A stretch of 25,618 bases of DNA from IMG/VR virus record IMGVR_UViG_3300030372_003609, positions 1-25,618 of that record; one strand, written 5' to 3'. Positions 2,805-25,618 of the stretch are shown one piece after another; the first letter of the stretch is position 1, and every line of letters starts with the position of its first letter. Made by a program: the position numbers and the translations under genes. This stretch comes from a virus. Lineage: Duplodnaviria > Caudoviricetes. The notes under the pieces are model-generated. The model worked only from the letters and a program-made list of their open reading frames with translations, had not been told where the DNA came from and made no database searches.

Positions 2805-3346
2805 TAGGAATATGCATAGGCCACAGTAGGCGGGGCGACAAAGGGGCATACACCACACCCCCCGATTCTATAAGTGAATATGATTTTAATAAAGCTCTAG
2901 TTCCTCTTATAGTTCCTTATTTAGAAGTTCCTTATAGAGTGTACGACGATTATCAGGCTTCAAGTTATGTGGGGGCTGTAAACTTTATATCTAGAAAATT
3001 AAAAGAGGACGGAGCAACCGCTTGTGTTGAGTTGCATTTTAATGCGGCAAGCCCTTCTGCCAATGGGCATGAGTGGCTTTATTGGGAGACAAGCACGGGA
3101 GGAAAACGGCTAGCTAAATCTTTTAAAGATACTATGGATACAGAGTACCCTGAACTTGTGTCAAGGGGGGCTAAAAGCAGGACGCATCGGCAGAGAGGTA
3201 GTTTGTTTTTAAGAAAGACTCCATGCTACGCCTGTATTGCGGAACCTTTCTTCGGATCAAATAGCACTGATGTAGGCGTAATCATGTCCGATTTAAGTCG
3301 ATTAGCCAGCGTGTATGCCGAGGGTATAAATAAATTTTATGCGTAA
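2801..3346 (+). CDS. Endolysin, N-acetylmuramoyl-L-alanine amidase (Amidase_3)
   Basis: Zn ligand motifs ICIGH...SEYDFN...ELHFNA and catalytic IAEPFF. Catalytic domain only. Confidence 0.9.
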   Translation: MIGICIGHSRRGDKGAYTTPPDSISEYDFNKALVPLIVPYLEVPYRVYDDYQASSYVGAVNFISRKLKEDGATACVELHFNAASPSANGHEWLYWETSTGGKRLAKSFKDTMDTEYPELVSRGAKSRTHRQRGSLFLRKTPCYACIAEPFFGSNSTDVGVIMSDLSRLASVYAEGINKFYA

Positions 3347-3639
3347 TGGACCTACCAAAAACAATTCGCATAGCTGGACAGAGGGTTCGGATATGCATTG
3401 TCGATTTAAGCGACGAGGATGTTTTTGGTTATTATAGCCACGACCGTAAAATAATATTCCTCTCCCATATTTTAGACGAGAAGGATCTTTTGAGCACACT
3501 CAGGCATGAGTTAATGGAGGCTAGTTTATGTATATCTGGTGTTGGCTTCTGTGAATCTTTTGAGCAGGAAGCTGTTGTACGATGTATGGACGAAGTTTTC
3601 TTTCCTGCTTACGAGCGGCTCTTAAAATTAATTGCGTAG
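3346..3639 (+). CDS. Small zincin-like phage protein with degenerate metal motif (HELME)
   Basis: 'GYY...IIFL...STLRHELMEA...EQEAVV' matches the minimal phage HExxH family layout, but the second His is Glu. Confidence 0.55.
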   Translation: MDLPKTIRIAGQRVRICIVDLSDEDVFGYYSHDRKIIFLSHILDEKDLLSTLRHELMEASLCISGVGFCESFEQEAVVRCMDEVFFPAYERLLKLIA

Positions 3640-11535: not shown

Positions 11536-11572
11536 AATATAGATATTACTTTAATAATATGCCTTTAAACAA
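11524..11572. promoter_or_regulatory. Overlapping divergent sigma70-like promoters
   Basis: Plus: TTTACT (11524-11529), 17 nt, TACTTT (11547-11552), 6 nt, ATG 11559. Minus: TTGTTT (11572-11567), 18 nt, TAATAT (11548-11543), 7 nt, ATG 11535. Confidence 0.5.
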
Positions 11573-13358
11573 TTCGCCTATCAAGCAGTTACTAGATCCT
11601 AAACTAGAACCAGCCGTTAGTTCAGATGGGAAAGAAATACAAGTAGGGGATTTTTTAATTCCGTTAGGAACCACATTAACGGCATTACTCTTTGGTTTTA
11701 AACAACATGAAGAAACAGATAAAAAAGAGTACTATTTTTGGCGGTTGTGCGACGAGCTTTGGAACAACGACGATCTCCCAGAACCTTTAATGATTAAGCA
11801 TCCTTGGGCGGAGGAAATGATTCGTGCGGCTCTCGAAAACAAATACTTATCTGTTGGGGGTAGTGCGTCTTCTGGCAAGTCACATACAATGGCCGCATGG
11901 GGTATTATAAATTGGTTAAGTCAGCCGAGGGACACTCTTGTTCTGATGACGTCCACCACTCTACGTGAGGCCCGTAAACGTATCTGGGGAAGTGTTATGT
12001 CTTTATTGTCCGTGATTAATGACGCTCCAATCAGGATCCGAGATTCGATTGGAAATGCCGCCTATATAAATGAGAAAGGAAATCTTATAGAGAGAGCAGG
12101 GCTTTCTTTGATATCTGCTGAAAAATCTAAAACTAAAGAAGCGGTTGGTAAATTCATTGGTATTAAACAGAAGCGGGTTATTTTAATTGGGGACGAGCTT
12201 TCTGAATTATCTGAAGCTATCTTGCAAGCGGGGTTAACCAACCTATCCAAAAACCCGTCGTTTCAAATGATAGGGATGAGCAACCCGAACAGCCGCTTTG
12301 ATGCCTTTGGCGTTTGGTCCGAACCCTACAGTGGCTGGGATTCTGTAGATACCAATACCGCAGACAATTGGAAAACAAAATGGGGGGGTTACTATTTACG
12401 GTTGGATGGGGAGCGGTCTCCGAACATTCTGGCGGGCGAAACAATTTACCCGTGGCTACCTACCATTGAGAAGATAACTGAGGATAAGAGTTTGTTAGGT
12501 GTCGAGAGCAGGGGTTATATGAGGATGGTGCGGGCTGTATTTTTTGATAGTGACGAGACAACGGGAATATATACTGAAAACGAAATATCATCGAGTGGTT
12601 CGATGGGGTCCGTGGAGTGGTCTTCAAATCCTATAAAGTTGTGTGGCATTGACCCCGCTTTTACAAATGGGGGAGACCGCACAATTATGTACACCGCTAA
12701 ATGCGGGTATGATCGATCAGGCCATTATGTAATCGAGTTTGGAGATTATTTTCATTTGAATGACGACGCTACAAACAAAGCAGTTCCGAGGACGTATCAA
12801 ATTGTTAGACAGATCAAAGAGAAATGTGAGAAGATGAAAATTCTTCCAGAGAATGTTAGTGTCGATGCCACTGGTGCGGGGGCTCCTTTTTGTGATGTGT
12901 TAGCTGGGGAGTGGTCTAATAAGTTCATGCGTATAAGCTTTGGCGGCAAGGCGAGTGACAAGCGGGTCAGTGCTAATAGCCAGTTAACAGGGGTGGAACT
13001 ATATATGAATCGAGTGTCTGAATTGTGGTTTGTAGGTAAGGAGTTAATGCGTACCCGCCAAATATTCGGAGTTAAATCTGATCTTGCCCAAGAAATAACT
13101 GCACGAAATTATGACATGGTAAAGAGCGGAGGTCTCCGCATGAAGATTGAATCGAAGCCCGAATTCAAGAGTCGATTTGGTAAAAGCCCCGACTTAGCTG
13201 ATGCGGCTTTCTTAGCATTAGATTGTGCTAGACAAAGGTTAGGTTTAGTTGCAGTAGATCCAATTGATGATGACCCTAACGGAATGCCAAGGAAAAGGCA
13301 GTCAATTAAGTCTTTAAGGGGGGCTTTAGAGAATTCAGAGGCTGTCTTGATTGATTGA
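11559..13358 (+). CDS. terL: Terminase large subunit
   Basis: Walker A GSASSGKS, Walker B ILIGDE, coupling motif MSNP, RNase H-like nuclease GIDPA...VDATG...SPDLADA. Confidence 0.92.
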   Translation: MPLNNSPIKQLLDPKLEPAVSSDGKEIQVGDFLIPLGTTLTALLFGFKQHEETDKKEYYFWRLCDELWNNDDLPEPLMIKHPWAEEMIRAALENKYLSVGGSASSGKSHTMAAWGIINWLSQPRDTLVLMTSTTLREARKRIWGSVMSLLSVINDAPIRIRDSIGNAAYINEKGNLIERAGLSLISAEKSKTKEAVGKFIGIKQKRVILIGDELSELSEAILQAGLTNLSKNPSFQMIGMSNPNSRFDAFGVWSEPYSGWDSVDTNTADNWKTKWGGYYLRLDGERSPNILAGETIYPWLPTIEKITEDKSLLGVESRGYMRMVRAVFFDSDETTGIYTENEISSSGSMGSVEWSSNPIKLCGIDPAFTNGGDRTIMYTAKCGYDRSGHYVIEFGDYFHLNDDATNKAVPRTYQIVRQIKEKCEKMKILPENVSVDATGAGAPFCDVLAGEWSNKFMRISFGGKASDKRVSANSQLTGVELYMNRVSELWFVGKELMRTRQIFGVKSDLAQEITARNYDMVKSGGLRMKIESKPEFKSRFGKSPDLADAAFLALDCARQRLGLVAVDPIDDDPNGMPRKRQSIKSLRGALENSEAVLID

Positions 13359-13390: not shown

Positions 13391-14131
13391 ATGGCTATCA
13401 ATACGAACATGGTTGTAAGTTCCGCCGACCAGTCTCCTGAAGAGAAGGAACTTCTTTCTGGATTAGGGACTGCTGGGGCCCCCAAAAAAAAGAACGATCT
13501 GCTTGAAAGGATCCGATTGGCTAAAAAGGGAATAGTCAAAGTTGACCCAACTGACGGAGGTACAGACAAATACGAGACGGACGAAGAGGCCGCTAAAAGT
13601 TTTTTGCAGACGGAAGAAGTGCAACAACAACAACTACCTGAAGCCCGCCGTGCTTTATCAGATCGTCTTGCATCCTCCTTATTGATTAAAGATCCTACGC
13701 AACGGCAAGAGGCCGTATCAGGATTACAAAAAGAGGGGGAAGCGTTAGGCATACTCAAAGATCAGTTTCAAAAAGTAGCGGGTGATTACTCTTCCGCTAT
13801 GGAAAAACAAATAGGCACTCCTCAACGAGAAGAAAGAACTAGATCTTTTTTAGAGGAAATGCGTAACAAAAGTTTAGGCCAAAGAAGGAGAAAAACTTAC
13901 AGCCGTTTTGGTGACTTAAAACTAGCTAGAAAATATAGAAGAGCAGGTTTTGACAAAGCGGCTCAAGCTGTTGCAATGAGAGGAGCTTTAAAGCAACAAG
14001 AAATGCCCGCACCGTCAATAGCTACACCTCAGTTTTTAAAAGCTAAAGAAGATGTTGTTCGGGAGAAAGCTGAAATGCAGACTTTGCAGAAAAGACTTAT
14101 GGAAAGATTACTAGGTCAAATAGACAATTAA
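13391..14131 (+). CDS. Probable internal virion (ejection) protein 1
   Basis: 246 aa, helical, Q/E/K/R-rich. First of three tandem genes of rising size ending in a giant protein, as in podoviral core-protein clusters. Confidence 0.45.
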   Translation: MAINTNMVVSSADQSPEEKELLSGLGTAGAPKKKNDLLERIRLAKKGIVKVDPTDGGTDKYETDEEAAKSFLQTEEVQQQQLPEARRALSDRLASSLLIKDPTQRQEAVSGLQKEGEALGILKDQFQKVAGDYSSAMEKQIGTPQREERTRSFLEEMRNKSLGQRRRKTYSRFGDLKLARKYRRAGFDKAAQAVAMRGALKQQEMPAPSIATPQFLKAKEDVVREKAEMQTLQKRLMERLLGQIDN

Positions 14132-14132
14132 T

Positions 14133-15119
14133 ATGGCTCTCGAAGATTTATATAATCAAGATATAGCACCACTTAAAAATACTTATGGGTTAAGTGGGGA
14201 GGAGGCTTCTTACATTTCCAGTATGAGAAGTGCTGATGTGATGCCTGAAGTAGGTAATGTTATTAAACTACAAGGAGCTATTCAAAGTCAGAAAATGAAT
14301 GAGCTGGCTTTTAAAAGATCTAAGTTCGAGTTTAAAAAAGAAAAAGAAAAAGCCCAAAGGGACGCCGAGTACATCGGCAAAGCGGATAATTTATTCCAGC
14401 AGTTCGACGACATTATTAATAATTCAAAAGATTCTTTTGAAGGTATGCAACAGATGTCTAACTGGGCTATGCAAAATGCAAAACAATTAAGTGAGCACGA
14501 TGTGACTAAGGCAATATACAATGCCGCAATCAATAGATTAAAATCGAAACAAGCTGAAAAAGACTACGGTTTAAAACAGCAGGACCGCTTAGATAGAAAC
14601 ACGGGGCAAGCTTTCAACATTGCTAATTATGGAGACGCTGAGGCAGTAGAGCGCATGATAAATGCTGACGGAGAAATTACTCCTAATGAGGAAGCCGCTC
14701 ATTTATTTGCTCTTCAGCGGGAGCAAGAAAAAAAGGAGGGTAAGGATATATCAAAGGCTCAAGCTGAACATGAATCCCGTGCCAGAAATTATGCCCTCGC
14801 AAAAGAAGCCATTAGTCTGGATGCGGCTCCTCTAGATGCCCAAATAAAAGAATTTAAAGCCATCCTTGAGGAGGCCCCCGTAGAGCCTGACCCTGCTGAT
14901 GATACAAATCAGACATATATAAAAAATTACAGTGGGGTCAAAAGTCAGTTGAGGGCCTTTGGCGGGACGGCTGAGACAGACCCAGAAGATTTTTTGCGGG
15001 GCTTGATTAAGAAGCGTGAAAAACTTAACGAAGAATTGAAAGCCGCCTTTTTAAGATTCTCAAAAAAAATACCTAAACCATCTGCGGGGTCAGGCATTAG
15101 CTCAAAAGACAAACCATAA
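14133..15119 (+). CDS. Probable internal virion (ejection) protein 2
   Basis: 328 aa, helical/coiled-coil, 1 nt after the previous stop. Confidence 0.45.
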   Translation: MALEDLYNQDIAPLKNTYGLSGEEASYISSMRSADVMPEVGNVIKLQGAIQSQKMNELAFKRSKFEFKKEKEKAQRDAEYIGKADNLFQQFDDIINNSKDSFEGMQQMSNWAMQNAKQLSEHDVTKAIYNAAINRLKSKQAEKDYGLKQQDRLDRNTGQAFNIANYGDAEAVERMINADGEITPNEEAAHLFALQREQEKKEGKDISKAQAEHESRARNYALAKEAISLDAAPLDAQIKEFKAILEEAPVEPDPADDTNQTYIKNYSGVKSQLRAFGGTAETDPEDFLRGLIKKREKLNEELKAAFLRFSKKIPKPSAGSGISSKDKP

Positions 15120-15146: not shown

Positions 15147-18100
15147 ATGCCAGAAGATTCATTATTATCTCAGTTTTTAGCGGAGCCTACTCCAACTACC
15201 GTTGAGGAGGTTCCATACTCCACTTGGTCACAAGAAAATATTTTTGACGACCCCATTGAAAGCTATTCAAAATATATGGATCACATACGGGGGCAGTATG
15301 TTGATGCGGGGGAATATAGTGCCGATGTTGAAAAGGAGATAAATCAAAATTTTTATGGGGAGCTAGTAAAACAAAAGTTAATCGACCCAGATAAGATAGA
15401 GGATTTTTATGAGGTTGATGCGAAGATAAGGAGATTTTCTTTACCTGATTTTGATGATCAGGTTGAAAACCTTTTTAAGGAAGACGGGCTTAGGAATCAG
15501 GAAAGAAAAATTCTTGAGGAAGAGGATAGGGAAATATTTAAAGATTATTTAGCTAAGGTTAATGCACGGGAAGAAGTCCCCGAAGAACAGCAAAAGCTAG
15601 TTAAAGAAACATTTCGTGAAAACAGAAACCAACTTTTAAAACAACAATTTTACAGGAAGGAAATAGATGCCGCTGTCCTTGAAGAGAAGGACGGTAAATT
15701 TACTTTTTTTGGCGGGCGTGTTCCAGACGGGAAATCCTATATGGATGTTTTAAGAGAGTCGGAAGGGGCGGGGGTCAGGATATCTGATTTACCACACCTA
15801 ATAGAAGCTCAAAAAAAACTACCTTCTTTCAAAAATTTATCTAGGGCAGACGCTATGGGGATGTCCGCTTTAGAAGGAGAGATCTCCGCTATTCTTAATA
15901 AAGACGAATCGATTAGAGAAAAATTATTAGGGCTGGCCCGATCTAAAGTAGAAGCTGAGGATGGATTTTGGGATGATGTCAAAGATGTTGGAGTAGGTTT
16001 CTTTGACTTCGCACAATCTTTTGTTTTGGGGGTGGGCAAACCCGTCGCTTCTTTTTTTGGCAAGGATGTTAGTGGTATTGAAGAACTTCAAAAAGGGGCT
16101 AATGCACAAAGAGCTATACGCCATTATTCAAAGTCGGGCGCAAATAGAGATGATGTAGTTGCCGACCTCGCTATTCAAGTCGGGGCTTCTTTAGAAGATG
16201 TTGGAAAAGTTGTGGACCAGATGGCTTTGGATGAAGCGGAGTTCAAATTCTATGAGGATGATCTTAAATTAAACATCAGGCAAGGAGTTTATAAACAACC
16301 CAAAATACATAGTTCTCTATTGCACCAACCAAAACTACTGGACAAAGCTATTACAGAGGCGGGGCTGGATTCTGATGTTGCCGAAAGTTTAAGGGCGTCC
16401 AGAGAAATTTATGCCGTTGAAGATTTTGATAGAGTAAATAAACTTTTGCAAGAGGACGGGGATACCGCAGATGATTGGAATGAATTTTACCTTGAGCATA
16501 AAAAGCAAGGGCTAGATGATCATAAGGTATTAGAAAAGTTTGCCGAGCAGTACGACTTTAATTCTTTTATAGATAAAGCCGAAGGCATTGCCTACTCTCT
16601 TTATTCGGGGACTGTGGGAGCCGCATCAGTTGTCATAGGAGCTATTGCAGGAGCTGATGGTTTAAAGAACTACGGCGTAGAAGTAATCAACAACGAGCAA
16701 AAGCGAAGACAAGTAGGAGGAGTATTCGGAGTCCAATATGGGTCTATGTATGATCTCGCAACTACTGCGGTTCCTATGATCACCGATATGGTGGCTACTG
16801 TATTTTTATCTAAATTCACAGCGGGTGCTGGGGGTGCTATATATGCAGGAGCTAAGGCAAGCTCGGTGTCGGCATTTCGAGGTGTCGTGAAAAATTTTGT
16901 TAAGGGAAATTTAAAGGCAACTGGAGGAGCCACGTATAAAGAGGTTGCTGAAAAACTATTTAAAGACGGGGCAATTAAAAATTTAGATGACGCTTATGGG
17001 ATAGTTAAAAACTACAACTCTAAAATGGCGCATAGAATAGGGGTTGCCCCCGCTGTTTTTGTCCCCGCCGCACATAGATCTGGGGCGCACACATACGCCG
17101 CCGTCAATACTTTAATGACTGAGAAGTTAACAAAAGAGCATAAGAATGCCGATGGTACGTGGCAAGATGGCTGGAGTGAAAAACGGGTTAAAGAAGAAGC
17201 ACATAAAAATGGACTGTCTGGTCTTTTCTTTGCTGGGGGTTTTACTGGATTACTTACCGCAGGATTTGGTTTACTGGGGAATGGGGGTTTTGAAACGGCC
17301 TTTTTAAGGAATGCATCTTTTAGGCAGTTGAAGCGTGTAGGAAAAGATATGTTAAATAGGGAGATTTCTAATGAGGCTTTCGGTAAAGCTATTCACAAAT
17401 CTTTCAAGACGGCGTTGGCAAAGCACGGAGCCGACGGGCTATCTAAAGTTTTTAAAGGTGCTGTGAGTGAGGGTATAGAAGAGAGTATAGATGAATTTGT
17501 TAATTCTATTATTCAGGATGTTATAACGGATGAGAACACTCCGATGATGGAGAGACTAAACCAGTCACTCCATGCTTTTTACTTGGGCGGTATGTTAGGA
17601 GGAGGGGGTGTTGCAATAAACAGAATTGCAAAAACAGTAGCCCCAGACAGATTTTTAGACAAAAAAGCCGCCGCAGATTTTGAAACCGAAATACTGGAGC
17701 AGTACCAGAAAGATGTTCAAGGCAACAAAGAACTCATAGAGGCGGGAGCTCCTAAAACAGCAGAGGCGGCGAGGGAGGTTTTAAGTCGCTACGCCCGTGC
17801 CGAACCTTCTGCGGAAGAGGCGGCGGCTAAGGTAGTGGAGCCTATTGCAGAAGAAGCTTCAGCAGAAGAAACTAAAAGGATTAACAGTGATTTAAAAGAT
17901 GTAGATAGGGAGGACGTAGAAGCCGCTGTTGATGCCGAGCTTGAGCCATCTCAAAAAGCCAACAATCCTGTCGATCCAGAGATAGCTGTTTCTGAAGACG
18001 CCCAAGAAATACTAAAAGAAAATAATGCCGATAGCGGCGAAGCTTTAGGAAAAATTTTAAAACCCCACTACGCCCCATCACCACAGGACGTATCAGATAA

Positions 18101-21100
18101 ACATACTGAAAGGTCTAAAGAGATAAGGAGCAGGGCTGAGGCGTGGGAAATTATAAATAGAATAAAAGATCCTACAGAAAGAAAGGAGGCTATGGAGAAG
18201 GCTAAAGAGTTAGGCTTTGGTCCTTTATCTCCAGCCAAGGCAAAGGCCGCTTTAGAAAAATTAAAAAAACAAACTGCGAAAGAGCTGGAGGCTATTAAAC
18301 AAGCTGAGAAGGATGGCCTTACTGAGGAGGACATGAATATCGTAGAGACGCTTGCTTCTGAAGGAGTGTCCAAAAGTTTAACACCAGAGTCTTTAAGTGA
18401 GCTGGGGGTTAAACCAAGCAAATCCGATCCCGCATTTATCAAGGTTCTTGAGAAAAAAGTTAAGGAAAGAATTAATTCTAAGTATCCAACCAAGCCCGTG
18501 CGTATGCCAGAAGGCGGGTACGGGATACCTAGAGCGGACGGCCAAGGAACTTTAAAAGTTCAGTCAAACGGCGTGGGTGTATTCAACAACGATCCCGACT
18601 CAATGATTACTCTCCTCCAATTGGGGATACCAGTTGAGACGGACAGCGTAACAGAAAAAACAAACCCCGCATTTAAGTGGGAAAAGAAGGGGGATAAATT
18701 TATTCTTCGTGATGTTATGGTTCGTGAGTCTGGGGGGATGATCTCTGCTACTACCTCTAACTCTAATGTCGCCGTATTGGAAGAAGATCATACAGATCTA
18801 ATTGAATCCGCCAAGCAACTCAATGAATTGGGCGATACGGACAACCCCAACCTTGATGTGAAAATCAGGAGTCCTTTTGACAGGAGAAAAAAAATTACAA
18901 TACGGGAATTAATCGAGGCGTCAAAAGACCCAGTAGAACTTAAAAAACTTCTAGCGAAATCGGACCAAAAAGTTGATGATCTGGACAAACCATTTTTTGA
19001 TTCTGCGGTCACTTACCTCAGCGTTCAACTCCAATTAAGATTTAGAAATTATGCCGAAGCTTTGGGGCGGGGGCTCGCTGTTGATTTAAACTTTACGGCC
19101 AGTGATGTTGCGTCAGAAGTAATAAACAAATTATATAAGCAACAACAGCTTAGAAAAGATTACCAAGTTAGAGCAACTGTTGAAAGTATAGATACAGACC
19201 GCACCACGAAGGTAGATTTAAATGAGGATGTAGACAGGACACAAGCGTCGGAAGATACCTACATCCCAATTAACCCAGCGGAAGACTCATCTCTAAGTGA
19301 GCCCGCTGTTGTCCGTGAATATTTATCACAACAACAGGAGACAGCGGGAGCCGCTTTAGAGTCTGATCCTGAAATGACTCAGGCTTTGCGGGCGGCTATG
19401 GCCGAGGCAGGACACGCCTATGCGGATAAACTTTCTGGGGAGGCACTGTTTGCCGCCCATGTTAGTCAATTAGCCAGAGAGGGGTCTTTCAATAAAGAAA
19501 AAAGTATTTATAGTTTTCATGCTCGATTAAAATCGGGGGAGTTCCAAAAATCAAAAGCTTTAAGCGACGCTTTATTCTTCTTAAATTTATCGCACACTTT
19601 TAATAGGGCGAAAGACCAAACACCTATAACCCGCAAAGAGGCCGCTTTAAGAATAAAACAAAAATTAGAAGAGCTCACAGGAAAAAAGGTTTTAGAATCA
19701 GAAGCTAAATATTTTTACCAAGGAATTAAAAAACAAGTAAATAAGTTTCTTCAACGGGCGGTTGCTGACAAAAGATCACGGAAGGTTATAGAGGCCGCTA
19801 ACGACGCTGAAGTTGAAGAGCTGGGTCTTATTAATAGATCCTCTGATAGTGTTATAGAAGCCCTTGAAAAAATAGCTTCAGGAAAAAATAAAGTTCAGGC
19901 AATCATTGCTAGAATGTTGCTCCACAACAGAGCTCTATTAAAAACTATAGAGTTCACTCTTGAAAAATCATCGGCAACTTATGCTGGAAAATACTTCATA
20001 GACAATACAGGTAAAGGCCATGTTGTGATAAACCTAAGTAGAACAGGAGGAAGAGGTGTTGCGGATACACTTCTTCATGAGTTCATCCACGCCTTCTCTT
20101 CACGAATAACACAACTAGATCCAAGCCAAAGATCGGCTGAAGAAAACAATGCCATTGCTAGGCTTGAAGGTCTTTTAAAGATCATCAAAAAACAAGCGTA
20201 TGCAGATAAAGCTCCTGCCAGCATTTTAGATGGGTTGGCTAATGTTGATGAATTTATATCATACTTCCTGACATCTCCTAAATTTCAAGCCTACATCAAG
20301 GGCATGAGGTTAAAGGAGACGGAAGGGCGCAACTTCTTTGACAGAGTAATCGATGCCATTGCCCGCCTATTCCGTCAGCCTACAAATGAAAGAGAATACA
20401 ATGCGGCCTTGAGGGACGTACTTGATATTACCAAACGAGGTATGCTTGTCAGGGAGCCCGACTCAAGTGCAGGATTCAGGAATCAGGTTGCAGATGGTAT
20501 GGAGCAGTCTCAGCAGGAAAGAGATGAGATCTCTAAATTAACAGGGATGCAAGCTGATATCAGAGACATACAAATGCTGGACGAAAAAGCGGCTGAGTTA
20601 GAAAACTATGTAGGGAATTTCGTTCCGTCAGAGGTGGCCGTATTCTCAGACAGCACTTTACCTACTATCGCCCGCTGGGACCCAAAGACTCAATCAATAC
20701 AATTTAATGGTAGGCGGGCGGCGGCTTTTTTAAATGAAGCACTGGCTAACAACGGGGGGTATCCTATAAATGAGGAGCAGGTTATTGCTATGATAATCAA
20801 TGAGGAGCTGGCGCACGGGGCGTCGTTTGCGTCTTTAAGTAAAGACAGCATTAATACTCTTATTGATTCATTGGATGAAGCTGAGAGTAAAAGAATTATT
20901 GAGGAATATTATCCAGAGGAAGAACAAGCAGACGCTTTGAAGAGGCTTGAAAGTGATGACCCTCAAGTTGTCAGAAATGAGAAGTATGTTCTTGCGGAAG
21001 AATCGTTGCGCCTGTTCTTCCAAAAGAAAACAAGAGGAACAACCACAGAGCAAGAAGTGGCTTTTCTGATTGAGTCCCCTAACAATTTAGAAATATTTAA

Positions 21101-24100
21101 ACAGTATCTCAAGAACACCTTTAAGAGACTTAGCTTCCATAGAGAAGAGAAGGACATTTCTCCTGAGATGAGGAATGCTCTCAAGAGAGTTCTGATAGAG
21201 GTTCGACGCATGGAGTCACGGTATAGGACTTCGATGAATGGGATGTACTTTGATGTGGGCAATCCTAACGCTACCGTTGATCAGCTTATCGCCCAGCTAT
21301 CCAGAAATAAATCAGTAGACCTTTTAGAAGAGGAGGATATTATCCCCGACCTAGAAACAAGAGTAGGTACGACGGCGGTTATAACCGCCCCTTTAAGAGT
21401 AGATGAATTAAAGAATCTATCTAAACAGCAGATGGTTAAGCGAGCTACCTCTGCTAAATACATCCATTTGCAACAAGCTTTCGATGACATATCTGAAGCA
21501 TATGGGTTAGATATAGAAACAAGGAGTCCGTTAATAGGGGGTTACCTAGAACCAGTTGATGCAACAGACCCCGCTCATGAAGGAAAAACAGAGGAAGAAC
21601 TAAGACAGTTAGCAACTTTATCTACTGAAGTTCCTGAACGAGTTTTTGTTGAAGGAGCAACCGAGGAAGAGTTAAAAGAAGTAGCCTTGCTAATTAAAGT
21701 TCTGGCTCCAGAGGTACAGCACTCTACTTTGTTGGTCGCATACCAAGATGAAGCAGAAGGAGCACAAGAAATAGAGGTGCGCATAAAAGCAAAGGGAGCT
21801 GAAAAAGCTAGGCTGATGGGTGAAGACTGGTTAAAAGATAAGAATGCAGGAGGCTTTTCTTTTGATCCTACAACTAGAGAGATAAATACTTTATTGCTTG
21901 AGCCTTTTGAAGAGGGGGATCCTTCGGTTGACGAACAACTAAATACATGGAATACTTTTGTAGATGAGCAAAAACAAAAAGGGAACATCTTCAAGAACGC
22001 CCAATCAGAAACAACCTATGTCTCGGCCCAGTTTGTCGGCGGAAAGCCTGAAGAAGTTCGAGGAGAGGTGCAGAGAATTAGGGATAAAGCACGTAAAGAA
22101 AACAACTCGGCCCTTCTTGAGGTTTCAGAGAGAGCCCTCACCCGAATAGATCACGAAATAAAAGGGGAGGTCATCAGGAAGAAAGCGGATTCTATTTTAG
22201 AAACAAGAGAACTTTCTCCCTTATCTTCAACTGAAGTAGCTAAGGCCGCCGAAGGCGAATCGTTTGCAACGATAAGAGACTTTGGAAAATTTATTGATGA
22301 CCGTTTTGAATCTATTAAAGGGACTCGTCAGTTAAGTGAACAGCCCGACGAAGGTATAGACGACCGTGCGGCTGAAGCGGCGCAAGCTTTGGTTGACGAT
22401 GTCTTGACTGGGCTTTCTCAATCAGGGAGTGGCATGGGATGGTATGATGCCAGAGTCGAAGCCACGCTCCACGAACTAACAAAGTTATACCCTGAACTTG
22501 CGGAAGATCAAAACGAGCTGGCTATTTTTGTTGGCATCCTTGCCACTACCAGCCAAGGCGAACCTGTAATTACAAATTTTAAAAACGCATCGAGAGTATA
22601 CGAAGACTATAAAGCTACGGGTAAATTATCCCATGACTACGCCTTTGGGACAGCCGCCGACGCCGTAAATAAGAACCTTAAATTCATGCAGGATCTTATA
22701 GACCGATATCAACGGGAAACAGGTCTAGGGAAAGAATACTTCCGTGAGTTTATGGACAGTGAAATTTTAGGTGGGGGGATTCGAGATATGTTTGGAGACA
22801 CTCCATCGGGGGTAACTCTTACCGACAAAGTCGTAGGTGCTAGAATGCTCGGACCTAAGATAGGATCTTTCTTTAATAATCTGAGAGGTAGATTCGACAC
22901 CATAACTATGGACTTGTGGTACACCAGAACCATGCACCGTTACATTGGAAACTCAGTCCTAGAAAATGATACCGATCAAATAATTAATGCCACTAACAAG
23001 TTTATAGAAGCTTTGCGGGGGTCTGAGAGATCTTATGATTTAGATCCTGTAGAACTTGAGGCTATGGGATTTGAAGATTTATTCAGAGAAGCAAAGAAGG
23101 TTTTCAACTTATGGTCTTCAGGAAAACTTCCAGAAGCTGGCGGAGTAACATTTAAAGAATACCCTGACGGATCTAAAATAGAAAAAGCCGCAAGAACAAT
23201 TACCACGACTGCGGGAATGAAGGCCGCTCCTAAGAATAAAGCGCACTCTTTATTCTTTGAAAAAATTGTAAGAGAAGCTCAAAGCCAGTTGAAAGATTTA
23301 GGTCTCCCGCTTAATGCCGCTGACATACAAGCAATCCTTTGGTTTAGAGAGAAGAATCTTTTCTTAGGATTAGGTTTAGCTAACAGTGCCTCCGCCCCCG
23401 CCGACTATCTTGATGCCGCTATGGTATTGAGAAGAGAGAAAGCACAAGAGACCGATGAGCAAACAGAAGAACCTGTACCTCCTGCACTAGAGACACGCTT
23501 CGGTGCGGGCAAGTTCCCTTCAGACCACACAGGTCTAAAGAAACTTGTTGAAGAAGATAAGGTTAGTGGCTCGGCAGGAATTCCAAAAGGTAAAGAGGGA
23601 CAGAGAGTTAAGTACTCTCATACTAATATTACATTAGGTCGTAAGAGTAGGGAAGGGGGTTCAGCTTATGATCCAAACTACCCAGTAGGTGTCATGCCTT
23701 ACTCGCTACAATTAGATAAGAAGTACAACGCATTTAATGTCAGACTTAAAGATGTTGACGACATTGTTCTTCAAGAGGGTAAGTACAATCAGTTTTTGGA
23801 CAATGGTCAAAAGTACGAGCTTCAGACGGATATGGATATTGAAGATGTCTTGTCTCAAATCAATAGTCCAAGATCAGACGAATTGAAGAAGATCCCTATG
23901 GTTGATTTCTTATTAATGAATCCAGAACTAAGGGGCAAGGAAAAGATTCCAGCGGGTACTGTTGTTTATGCACAAGGAGCAAAACAAGTTGTGGGTGGGC
24001 CAGCAGGAACTTTGGTTTCATATAATAAAGACATAAACTTAAAAGACACAAAAGGTTGGACATCTATAGTTTATAATCCAGCACTGGGTAATTATATGTA

Positions 24101-25618
24101 TCCAGTTACTGGAGAAAAAGGTTCAGCTAATTTTGAAATAAATAAAGAACTACTGGGGGCAGATGAAGTGATAATGGTCAGTGATTTAGGTAAACAAACT
24201 AAAGCTGAAGGAATCAACTTCATGTTGCTGGCTAAAGGTGCAAGGTTCAAGGATCTTACAGATCAAGAAGTAGAGGAAAACAGAAGCTCTAACATAGTCA
24301 TAGATCGTTTAAAAAATAAAGAAGCTATACCTCTGGAAGCTTCAACTGAAGCCCCCGTACTTGAAACAAGAATAGGGGCCGATGAGATTTTAGCTAAACT
24401 AAACAGAGCAGAGATTAATCAACTGGGTAAGAAAAGGATGACTCCCGCAGGGAAGCCTATGACGGGTACTGTTATATCTAAAGAGAACCTTGCAGAGATT
24501 TGGCAACAAGGTTTTGAAAAGAGGAAAAAAAAGTACAACGAAGCTAGAAAGAGGATAGCAGAAAAAACTGGTTTCTGGCTTCCTGAACTAACCATCGATA
24601 GATATGCCCCCACTCCCGCTTCTACCTTAGAGCTATTCAAGCTGGCGGACATTGCTCAATGGCATTTGGACATGGCTAACTTTGTAATACCAGAAGGCTA
24701 CGACACGATTGCATTTGTTCCGTGCGCCGCTACCAAACCTTGGTGCGGAGCCCTAGATGAAAATACTCTACATAGTAAAGCACACCGTATGTTATATCCA
24801 TCCTATAATAGGGTGCGGGAGATGTTTGATAAAGGAGCGGTAGGAAAGAATTTTAAAAGAGTATACTTTGTAACGATATCAGAACCACTGGGCGTTGTAC
24901 CTCAAGACAGGTGGCACAACTTCCCGCCCTATGATAACTCAGGACTATTCACTAGCCCGCCTCAACAATCAGGGTTCCCTACTAAATACTGGCTAAACCT
25001 CCCAAAAGAAAAAGGAGGAACAGGAGCTAAACAATTATTCCCGTTTGATGAAAAGGCATACAACAAAGCCATAGATATTCTAGGCAATGTTATTGCTAAT
25101 TTTGTTCAGACAAATAAAGAGAATAACCCAGACTTAAAAGTTATTAGCTTCGTTAAGGACGACAAGAAAAAAGGTTCTCATGAGCTGATGGTGGACGCCG
25201 CTTCAAAATTTGCAGGAGAGCCTATCGTTTCCGAAGATAACAATTATGCTAAACGTGCTGTTTCAAATACACCGCCTGAAGCTCTTCTGAAAAAAGTTTT
25301 AGGACTCGAAGGGCGGGTAGAATATGATCCGAACTTTGAAGTGGATAGGACAGAAATAATTGCTAGGTCTCCGCTACCAACTGAACCCCCCGCACTTGAA
25401 ACAAGGTTCGGTGCTAAAGATGCTGAGTGGATGGAGTTAGCTCAAGATCCTGAAAAGAATTTTAAACGTCTTGAGGAACTTGATGAGGAGGCGGCCACCG
25501 CCGCAGGGTATACGAACATTGGGGTTAGAGCAGGTAGTTACACAAAAGGTGGTCATATGGGTCTACCAAGTACGCAGTCTAATTTTGGAGCGGGGTATTA
25601 CATGATGGAAGGAGATGA
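15147..25618 (+). CDS. Giant multidomain polyvalent/internal virion protein (at least 3490 aa, 3' truncated)
   Basis: Manual translation from ATG 15147 (MPEDSLLSQF...) finds no stop up to the window end (...NFGAGYYMMEGD). Contains Gly-rich hydrophobic segments, EGIEE, HEFIH, GPK..TMDLW..QAILW, PCAATKPW..SEPLGVVP and repeated LETRxG linkers. Confidence 0.93.
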   Translation, partial: MPEDSLLSQFLAEPTPTTVEEVPYSTWSQENIFDDPIESYSKYMDHIRGQYVDAGEYSADVEKEINQNFYGELVKQKLIDPDKIEDFYEVDAKIRRFSLPDFDDQVENLFKEDGLRNQERKILEEEDREIFKDYLAKVNAREEVPEEQQKLVKETFRENRNQLLKQQFYRKEIDAAVLEEKDGKFTFFGGRVPDGKSYMDVLRESEGAGVRISDLPHLIEAQKKLPSFKNLSRADAMGMSALEGEISAILNKDESIREKLLGLARSKVEAEDGFWDDVKDVGVGFFDFAQSFVLGVGKPVASFFGKDVSGIEELQKGANAQRAIRHYSKSGANRDDVVADLAIQVGASLEDVGKVVDQMALDEAEFKFYEDDLKLNIRQGVYKQPKIHSSLLHQPKLLDKAITEAGLDSDVAESLRASREIYAVEDFDRVNKLLQEDGDTADDWNEFYLEHKKQGLDDHKVLEKFAEQYDFNSFIDKAEGIAYSLYSGTVGAASVVIGAIAGADGLKNYGVEVINNEQKRRQVGGVFGVQYGSMYDLATTAVPMITDMVATVFLSKFTAGAGGAIYAGAKASSVSAFRGVVKNFVKGNLKATGGATYKEVAEKLFKDGAIKNLDDAYGIVKNYNSKMAHRIGVAPAVFVPAAHRSGAHTYAAVNTLMTEKLTKEHKNADGTWQDGWSEKRVKEEAHKNGLSGLFFAGGFTGLLTAGFGLLGNGGFETAFLRNASFRQLKRVGKDMLNREISNEAFGKAIHKSFKTALAKHGADGLSKVFKGAVSEGIEESIDEFVNSIIQDVITDENTPMMERLNQSLHAFYLGGMLGGGGVAINRIAKTVAPDRFLDKKAAADFETEILEQYQKDVQGNKELIEAGAPKTAEAAREVLSRYARAEPSAEEAAAKVVEPIAEEASAEETKRINSDLKDVDREDVEAAVDAELEPSQKANNPVDPEIAVSEDAQEILKENNADSGEALGKILKPHYAPSPQDVSDKHTERSKEIRSRAEAWEIINRIKDPTERKEAMEKAKELGFGPLSPAKAKAALEKLKKQTAKELEAIKQAEKDGLTEEDMNIVETLASEGVSKSLTPESLSELGVKPSKSDPAFIKVLEKKVKERINSKYPTKPVRMPEGGYGIPRADGQGTLKVQSNGVGVFNNDPDSMITLLQLGIPVETDSVTEKTNPAFKWEKKGDKFILRDVMVRESGGMISATTSNSNVAVLEEDHTDLIESAKQLNELGDTDNPNLDVKIRSPFDRRKKITIRELIEASKDPVELKKLLAKSDQKVDDLDKPFFDSAVTYLSVQLQLRFRNYAEALGRGLAVDLNFTASDVASEVINKLYKQQQLRKDYQVRATVESIDTDRTTKVDLNEDVDRTQASEDTYIPINPAEDSSLSEPAVVREYLSQQQETAGAALESDPEMTQALRAAMAEAGHAYADKLSGEALFAAHVSQLAREGSFNKEKSIYSFHARLKSGEFQKSKALSDALFFLNLSHTFNRAKDQTPITRKEAALRIKQKLEELTGKKVLESEAKYFYQGIKKQVNKFLQRAVADKRSRKVIEAANDAEVEELGLINRSSDSVIEALEKIASGKNKVQAIIARMLLHNRALLKTIEFTLEKSSATYAGKYFIDNTGKGHVVINLSRTGGRGVADTLLHEFIHAFSSRITQLDPSQRSAEENNAIARLEGLLKIIKKQAYADKAPASILDGLANVDEFISYFLTSPKFQAYIKGMRLKETEGRNFFDRVIDAIARLFRQPTNEREYNAALRDVLDITKRGMLVREPDSSAGFRNQVADGMEQSQQERDEISKLTGMQADIRDIQMLDEKAAELENYVGNFVPSEVAVFSDSTLPTIARWDPKTQSIQFNGRRAAAFLNEALANNGGYPINEEQVIAMIINEELAHGASFASLSKDSINTLIDSLDEAESKRIIEEYYPEEEQADALKRLESDDPQVVRNEKYVLAEESLRLFFQKKTRGTTTEQEVAFLIESPNNLEIFKQYLKNTFKRLSFHREEKDISPEMRNALKRVLIEVRRMESRYRTSMNGMYFDVGNPNATVDQLIAQLSRNKSVDLLEEEDIIPDLETRVGTTAVITAPLRVDELKNLSKQQMVKRATSAKYIHLQQAFDDISEAYGLDIETRSPLIGGYLEPVDATDPAHEGKTEEELRQLATLSTEVPERVFVEGATEEELKEVALLIKVLAPEVQHSTLLVAYQDEAEGAQEIEVRIKAKGAEKARLMGEDWLKDKNAGGFSFDPTTREINTLLLEPFEEGDPSVDEQLNTWNTFVDEQKQKGNIFKNAQSETTYVSAQFVGGKPEEVRGEVQRIRDKARKENNSALLEVSERALTRIDHEIKGEVIRKKADSILETRELSPLSSTEVAKAAEGESFATIRDFGKFIDDRFESIKGTRQLSEQPDEGIDDRAAEAAQALVDDVLTGLSQSGSGMGWYDARVEATLHELTKLYPELAEDQNELAIFVGILATTSQGEPVITNFKNASRVYEDYKATGKLSHDYAFGTAADAVNKNLKFMQDLIDRYQRETGLGKEYFREFMDSEILGGGIRDMFGDTPSGVTLTDKVVGARMLGPKIGSFFNNLRGRFDTITMDLWYTRTMHRYIGNSVLENDTDQIINATNKFIEALRGSERSYDLDPVELEAMGFEDLFREAKKVFNLWSSGKLPEAGGVTFKEYPDGSKIEKAARTITTTAGMKAAPKNKAHSLFFEKIVREAQSQLKDLGLPLNAADIQAILWFREKNLFLGLGLANSASAPADYLDAAMVLRREKAQETDEQTEEPVPPALETRFGAGKFPSDHTGLKKLVEEDKVSGSAGIPKGKEGQRVKYSHTNITLGRKSREGGSAYDPNYPVGVMPYSLQLDKKYNAFNVRLKDVDDIVLQEGKYNQFLDNGQKYELQTDMDIEDVLSQINSPRSDELKKIPMVDFLLMNPELRGKEKIPAGTVVYAQGAKQVVGGPAGTLVSYNKDINLKDTKGWTSIVYNPALGNYMYPVTGEKGSANFEINKELLGADEVIMVSDLGKQTKAEGINFMLLAKGARFKDLTDQEVEENRSSNIVIDRLKNKEAIPLEASTEAPVLETRIGADEILAKLNRAEINQLGKKRMTPAGKPMTGTVISKENLAEIWQQGFEKRKKKYNEARKRIAEKTGFWLPELTIDRYAPTPASTLELFKLADIAQWHLDMANFVIPEGYDTIAFVPCAATKPWCGALDENTLHSKAHRMLYPSYNRVREMFDKGAVGKNFKRVYFVTISEPLGVVPQDRWHNFPPYDNSGLFTSPPQQSGFPTKYWLNLPKEKGGTGAKQLFPFDEKAYNKAIDILGNVIANFVQTNKENNPDLKVISFVKDDKKKGSHELMVDAASKFAGEPIVSEDNNYAKRAVSNTPPEALLKKVLGLEGRVEYDPNFEVDRTEIIARSPLPTEPPALETRFGAKDAEWMELAQDPEKNFKRLEELDEEAATAAGYTNIGVRAGSYTKGGHMGLPSTQSNFGAGYYMMEGD
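21345..25415 (+). repeat. Dispersed in-frame linker repeat P-x-L-E-T-R-[FIV]-G (4 copies)
   Basis: PDLETRVGT 21345-21371, PALETRFGA 23481-23507, PVLETRIGA 24354-24380, PALETRFGA 25389-25415. Confidence 0.9.

Follow-up and report, generated by a model that had tools for sequence, protein, structure and literature searches.

A recurring junction peptide and a candidate protease domain in a giant polyvalent protein of marine phages

Architecture of the giant protein and its cargo

The stretch of DNA analysed here (25,618 nucleotides, hereafter the window) encodes a phage DNA polymerase A, an exonuclease, a resolvase, an amidase and a terminase. The terminase large subunit gene (11559–13358, + strand) is followed by two small unannotated open reading frames (ORFs; 13391–15119) and by the gene for a giant polyvalent protein (15147–25616, + strand). 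This ORF is open at the 3′ end of the window, which holds the first 3490 of 4832 amino acids; the full-length version, P0001, comes from an uncultured marine phage and has no mismatch to the window across these 3490 residues. Pfam scans of the whole giant protein returned no family, and a search of viral contigs for close relatives, with the zincin region as query, found none. Three protein searches (79 distinct proteins) and added loci yielded 198 related sequences. In 186 of them both conserved blocks served as anchors, and removal of near-duplicates left 107 orthologues. These share the end of a conserved N-block (residues 1–2045; 15147–21281, + strand), which aligns to the orthologues at about 22–80% identity, and a conserved C-block of about 1100 residues, with 22–3,125 residues of variable cargo in between. 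The giant protein is thus a large chain of several unrelated domains that vary between relatives, as expected of a polyvalent protein.

Two zincin-like sites lie in the distal N-block region, both upstream of the first copy of the junction motif described below. The Z1 domain (19836–20423, + strand) contains HEFIH (20076–20090) and E1702, the HExxH and downstream Glu of the zincin-like metallopeptidase (MPTase) domains of polyvalent proteins, and is homologous to podophage ejection proteins (9sfn_G, E 2.9e-12; 8vb2_A, E 9.1e-9). In BFVD, the fold of a Z1–Z2 model matches LPD/ART-PolyVal proteins and phage internal core proteins. Because of this homology and these model matches, the giant protein is probably a virion ejection protein, and from the neighbouring terminase gene and the ejection-protein matches we infer packaging in the virion and delivery with the DNA. 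The Z2 domain, our candidate cis protease (20559–21305, + strand), contains EELAH (20802–20816), with Glu in place of the first His of the canonical motif, and E1952 (21000–21002). The predicted catalytic E1887, second His H1890 and third-ligand E1952, which lies on a later helix, are all present in an alignment that was chosen for an intact xExxH.

In the Z2 model (pLDDT 81), a helix and three strands precede the EExxH helix, and the Glu sits on a helix further on; this is the element order of zincins. Its structural matches to mini-zincins and ArdC are weak: the α/β part aligns to both, the matches being 2ejq (Z 5.5, rmsd 2.6 over 70 residues), 6sna (Z 5.2, rmsd 4.9 over 127), 1xm5 (Z 4.9) and 3e11 (Z 4.8, rmsd 3.2 over 85), and globin-like entries score equal or higher. 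The available part of one study describes 2ejq and 3e11 as mini-zincins (PMC3890501). Neither model matched a PDB entry at E ≤ 0.001 in Foldseek, and the sequence relatives of Z1 were also absent among the matches listed. Profile comparison of Z1 with Z2 gave no significant match; Z2 has no sequence relative among solved structures, and a tblastn search with Z2 found none among cultured phage records.

Among 103 scored orthologues, Z1 reads HExxH...E in 78 and EExxH in 25 (for example, L094, L101 and P0009), and it is never degenerate when present. Among 106 scored orthologues, Z2 has [EH]ExxH and the downstream Glu in 86 (EExxH in 78, HExxH in eight) and deviates in 20. Of the eight proteins whose Z2 reads HExxH, seven have a Z1 of the EExxH form and one lacks Z1. 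The first ligand thus toggles between His and Glu in both domains.

Four in-frame copies of P-x-L-E-T-R-[FIV]-G follow on the + strand: PDLETRVG at the end of the N-block (copy 1, 21345–21368), PALETRFG (copy 2, 23481–23504), PVLETRIG (copy 3, 24354–24377) and PALETRFG again (copy 4, 25389–25412). All four were reported in the original prediction, which had also quoted the codons of copies 2 and 4 correctly. A fifth copy, VLYTRFGA, is located at residue 3726 of P0001, beyond the window, and the C-block follows it. Copy 3 is deleted in P0002 and kept in its close relative L180. When the 3490 residues were shuffled 1000 times, the gapped pattern at six of eight positions occurred at most twice (four times observed), and a four-residue word at most four times (five observed). 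The four copies are thus real and not a product of chance. The only other LETR in the six frames of the window belongs to the weak ILETRE at 22194, which had been proposed as a further site; the three close orthologues read VLAKRD, ILEKRT and VLEKRK there, and we dropped it from the pattern. The two-domain model places the first motif, undocked, in a tail predicted with low confidence.

The motif copies delimit four stretches of cargo within the window, all on the + strand. Cargo A+B (21369–23480), which holds the non-conserved ILETRE, combines a domain of about 280 residues without assigned function and a DUF7178-like domain, and is a single unit in all four close relatives. The DUF7178-like domain (22215–23480) is the commonest cargo, being found in many orthologues (clusters F0, F2, F3, F7 and F16); its GPK...F.NNL.G...T.D.W pattern presumably recalls HhH-type DNA glycosylase folds. 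Cargo C (23505–24353) has no family match, its best Atlas score of 0.81 being a lead only, and stands directly behind the N-block in other lineages. A 126-residue unit that is a motif-flanked cassette in L098 (9587–9964) and P0051 also occurs at residues 2948–3068 of P0002, and lies within cargo C without motifs in P0002–P0004; it has no Pfam match and looks ASCH/PUA-like. Cargo D (24378–25388) resembles DUF5591 and archaeosine synthase (ArcS) in weak matches (E 0.0054; E 7.4e-5, far below the cut-off) and has no solved relative; its likeness suggests that it may act on modified guanines or tRNA. Cargo E, about 300 residues in total, begins at 25413–25616 and clusters with ART-PolyVal cassettes (family F1). 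Its fragment inside the window has no Pfam match, and PF18760 matches the P0009 member of F1 with E 1.2e-11.

The original prediction had called these segments enzyme cassettes. Their cassette nature is borne out by the comparisons below; the word enzyme is backed by weak family matches, in three of the five cargo domains. Between the motifs of 62 cargo-bearing proteins we counted 132 segments, which form 59 clusters in varying order. The cargo identified comprises ART-PolyVal (PF18760 above the cut-off in P0009, P0020 and P0054), GNAT (in L098), DUF7178 and DUF5591/ArcS-like domains, and most segments match nothing. Typical effector domains of polyvalent proteins, namely ART-PolyVal and GNAT, are thus present in the orthologues.

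A family of junction motifs between exchangeable cassettes

The peptide of the window belongs, as a dialect, to a wider motif of the family, L-x-[ST]-x-Φ-G-[AS], which flanks the variable region on both sides and also stands between cassettes. At 103 distinct high-scoring sites, which were picked by a matrix, Leu occurs in 100, Ser or Thr in 103 and Gly in 88, and Pro is enriched 2.7-fold upstream. Lineages use their own dialects (LETRFG, LQSRYG, LESRFG, LYSAP, LGSGLG and LYSELG). An orthologue of 5725 residues (P0056) has several LRSDLG joints and extra Z1-like matches within its cargo region. The matrix was seeded with 29 C-junction words picked by a loose pattern written after the motifs had been seen. 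In 71 proteins (four of 75 were dropped for partial anchors), it scored at least 12 at 22 of the 3,100 positions of the N-junction, 30 of the 53,924 internal ones and 2 of the 236,361 in the conserved blocks; other ORFs gave one such score in 253,244 residues. As in self-processing viral polyproteins, one consensus thus marks the junctions between modules. Furthermore, of 76 sites other than the C-junction word, 70 fall in the same position-4 class as that word in their own protein (null mean 39.6, maximum 54), a figure inflated by kinship; two of the six exceptions look like donor words. A test of the best shared 7-mer between the two junctions of each protein reached p ≤ 0.05 in only 33 of 62 proteins, and an unguided expectation-maximization motif search in windows around the C-junction settled on the beginning of the C-block and was discarded.

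Among the 86 proteins with an intact Z2 site, 31 have no motif scoring at least 12, and 18 cargo-bearing and six empty proteins score below 9 at both junctions; many of these are dialects missed by the matrix. In 25 Z2-intact proteins, the match is at the C-junction only. Because so many intact proteins have either no scored motif or only this one, the oldest role of the motif may have been to separate the C-block, the release of each cassette being optional. One clade (L093, L097, L103–L105 and P0064) has an intact Z2 and no linker at the junction of the N- and C-blocks. These six proteins carry no cargo there and share a conserved word, [LI]-[RQ]-[RQ]-R-[FY]-[AT]-A, which may represent a diverged motif or belong to a helix; compared with the window, the five L loci have N-blocks longer by 300–600 residues.

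The original prediction that the motif is a joint for swapping cassettes, placed at domain boundaries, held up in the comparison of orthologues that it had proposed: the cassettes vary, the motif is enriched at the junctions and the breakpoints cluster at it. An all-against-all BLAST with motifs masked defined 118 internal breakpoint clusters in 46 proteins, 88 of them in proteins with an internal motif. Of these 88, 38 fall within 15 residues of a motif, against a mean of 4.1 and a maximum of 12 in 2000 null replicates; the remaining 50 coincide with variants below the score threshold or lie within a cassette. Seen from the motifs, 35 of the 47 internal copies have a breakpoint. The backbones of P0001 and P0005 share 35–40% identity and their cargo D shares 75%, carrying the dialect of its host at both ends. 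In P0013 (residues 2212–2245), a short remnant of the start of an ART cassette between the host word LASAP and a donor-like LQSGWG is a visible insertion scar. In closely similar contigs from other marine runs (X2, X3, X6, X8 and X9), the match to the window begins at 21370–21371, directly after the codons of copy 1, and contigs turn to other sequence at 23450, 24352 and 25414; further loose ends lie away from motifs, and these contigs provide loose ends only, with no joints across cassettes.

These breakpoints would also be expected if the motif were a mere flexible linker and a DNA recombination joint copied between cassettes, because crossovers map beside its codons and copying yields shared dialects. 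The silent sites bear on this reading. When copies within a genome are compared, five genomes show no more identical codons than chance would give (32 of 108, against 33.7), the window shows slightly more (16 of 34, against 10.7), and two genomes, whose copies are near-identical DNA, show far more (17 of 21 and 39 of 51, against 6.7 and 11.7). This pattern indicates that the peptide is selected and that its copies have sometimes been copied recently. The near-identical copies favour the linker and joint reading, but in the five genomes the residues are kept with saturated silent sites, which agrees with the selection on the peptide that had been proposed for this locus, and the exact peptide is kept by empty alleles: four with an intact Z2 (P0015, P0055, L179 and P0070) retain one copy. 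Nor is the motif conserved as DNA in the manner of an integron-like recombination site, being at chance in five of eight genomes, raised in two and slightly raised in the window, and no linked integrase was recognized when 44 of 50 ORFs of a near-complete relative were compared with PHROGs, many ORFs having no match. We consider a mere linker and joint very improbable, also in view of the substitution pattern described next.

Loss of the motif together with the Z2 site

Within a clade of 35 sequences (support 100), the Z2 site has been lost four times, with different substitutions each time (NEEIGR/K, RRQVGH/A, NEQIG[QN]/K and NKxxGx/K). The C-junction reads LES[RQ]FG in all 16 Z2-intact and none of the 19 Z2-dead sequences, three of which keep near-intact words (IQSQFG twice and TESQFG). 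The trees came from FastTree and, for the counts of changes and of independent pairs, from a quick LG+G4 run. By parsimony, the motif positions L, E, S, F and G changed 22 times on dead branches (length 4.36) and not once on intact branches (4.07); the corresponding binomial p of 5e-7 treats positions as independent, and the definition of decay was set after the data were seen. The next six residues changed 13 times on dead and 12 times on intact branches. Residues adjacent to the motif were therefore not relaxed, contrary to what a linker whose loss with Z2 reflects coincidental relaxed selection would predict. Independent pairs, three on well-supported branches and four on all, are all concordant (sign test p 0.25). 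The co-loss of the consensus with a protease-like site in the same chain is thus perfect on only three or four independent events, all in one clade, and one loss (L183/L184/L186) and an intact control (L127) were collected after the idea of co-loss arose. Outside this clade, L106 (QExxH and Glu), once considered Z2-dead, is now ambiguous. The Z2-dead lineages still carry 570–810 residues of cargo, fused without linkers, indicating that processing is dispensable for some phages.

The converse cases concern Z1. In P0020, P0021 and P0054, Z1 is deleted and no HExxH is left anywhere in the protein, but Z2 and three or four motifs are kept; in P0062, Z1 is deleted and Z2 is kept, with weak motif matches (scores 9–10). 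In the Z2-dead sequences, Z1 remains HExxH, and the mini-zincin is unchanged in the three Z2-dead genomes checked. This double dissociation, in which the motif decays with Z2 and persists where Z1 is deleted, points to Z2 as the candidate cutter. The cleavage predicted originally is thus indirectly supported by the co-loss of the motif and a predicted catalytic site, but the cutter would be the EExxH domain at residues 1886–1952 rather than the canonical HExxH zincin.

The same observations bear on the alternative that the motif is the cleavage site of another protease, such as Z1, the mini-zincin, an unrecognized head protease or a host protease. Z1 has a zincin-type site in every orthologue that retains it, and the gene for the stand-alone mini-zincin (3346–3639, + strand), which reads HELMEA (HExxE) in the window and close relatives and HExxH in more distant ones, is conserved in relatives; both were weighed as rival cutters. 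However, motifs persist without Z1 and decay where Z1 and the mini-zincin are intact, and no other ORF of a 98% complete relative contains the motif. The prohead protease, also suggested originally, was not recognized in the near-complete relative, a weak negative since the portal and capsid were likewise unrecognized there. We regard cutting by another protease as quite improbable.

The main rival holds that the Z2 metal site binds the motif without cutting it, the motif being a docking or threading signal that orders a beads-on-a-string protein at packaging or ejection. Docking accounts for the co-loss equally well, the Z2 site of the window is EExxH and not HExxH, and the N4 virion RNA polymerase (vRNAP), which has an HExxH domain, is one chain of loosely linked domains, according to the available part of its description (PMC13434306). 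By contrast, none of the 86 site-intact proteins lacks the predicted general-base Glu, which was lost alongside the ligands in three of the four dead lineages, and under docking a single binding site must serve up to five copies per chain. We therefore consider docking unlikely.

A proposed mode of action and its relation to known systems

Our preferred reading is that the motif is a joint of swappable modules and likely a site recognized and cut by Z2, to which we give a probability of roughly two in three; self-cutting at the joints is likely because relatives lose the peptide wherever the neighbouring predicted metal-protease site is lost. Recognition of the motif by Z2 is supported by co-evolution, and we infer that Z2 is an active metallopeptidase that cuts rather than just binds. 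Z2, with its EExxH...E site, would act in cis and cut its own chain at every motif copy, either inside the head or following ejection, freeing the cargo domains or enzymes and the C-block as separate proteins. The protein would be packaged and ejected, and its cargo would act on the host early in infection. A cassette that lands between motifs would inherit this release route. Since a new cassette works best when flanked by motifs and the motif copies offer short DNA similarity, the copies would favour crossovers and the peptide would double as a recombination joint.

In its broadest form, which we give an even chance, this proposal describes a programmable polyprotein magazine: a non-canonical EExxH zincin cuts its chain at a lineage-specific six-residue code, any effector placed between two copies is packaged, injected and then set free, and protease and code evolve, and are lost, as a pair. 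If so, phage polyvalent proteins would have their first matched protease–site pair, and multi-protein delivery would have a natural plug-in system. It would explain how marine phages exchange injected effectors without breaking a structural ejection protein, and the motif would supply a rule for excising cargo domains in annotation. The locus offers a candidate enzyme, a 250-residue domain with three mutable residues, and a candidate substrate, a six-residue peptide with natural dialects, together with natural loss-of-function alleles. With enzyme, substrate and dead alleles so defined, the proposal of self-processing made in 2017 becomes testable with a small recombinant construct. From that year on, zincins have been proposed to carry out self-processing, with neither site nor cutter specified, and reports describe some related proteins as uncut.

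In the mostly open-access literature searched, we found neither a published description of such a junction motif nor a published protease–site pairing for such proteins, and the available parts of PMC7824862, PMC9503650, PMC11440229 and a phi24B preprint name no cleavage motif for them. The crAss-like phage phi14:2 (gp65–67) likewise has a huge virion protein with a zincin that is thought to be cut into parts, and the zincin may help to activate the polymerase (bioRxiv 10.1101/2020.03.07.982082, available part). Unlike phi14:2, the giant protein described here has no detected RNA polymerase (no family match), and its array is variable, whereas the phi14:2 parts are fixed and the available text names no cleavage site. 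The phage P1 proteins DdrB and DarA are similar in being head-packaged, proteolytically processed anti-defence proteins, DdrB having a C-terminal MPTase; unlike at this locus, a single processing event and no repeated motif or cassette array are reported for them in the available part of PMC5512222. The podophage ejection proteins, PhiM1 gp48 (PDB 8vb2) and that of PDB 9sfn, share with the giant protein the stretch homologous to Z1. In contrast to it, their solved chains have 1263–1337 residues, and N4 vRNAP (gp50) is a single uncut beads-on-a-string chain in the available part of PMC13434306. N4 vRNAP and ArdC, which have related domains, are reported as unprocessed (PMC5512222), and the protease site of ArdC is dispensable in conjugation, according to the available part of PMC7213743.

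The closest likeness is to phage-type polyvalent proteins, which were defined by Iyer et al. in 2017 together with the proposal of MPTase autoproteolysis (PMC5512222). They are similarly very large and multidomain, are encoded near packaging genes, and combine an MPTase with ART-PolyVal-type cargo. The peptidase section of that paper describes HExxH and HExxxH variants and not EExxH; its available text names no cleavage motif and uses the word 'linker' 0 times, and its supplements may bear on novelty. Self-processing polyvalent proteins are thus known as a general idea (PMC5512222), and the candidate protease–site pair appears to be new. Unlike the polyvalent proteins described there, the giant protein has a defined junction peptide, a bounded array of cassettes and a pattern of co-loss that singles out one EExxH domain.
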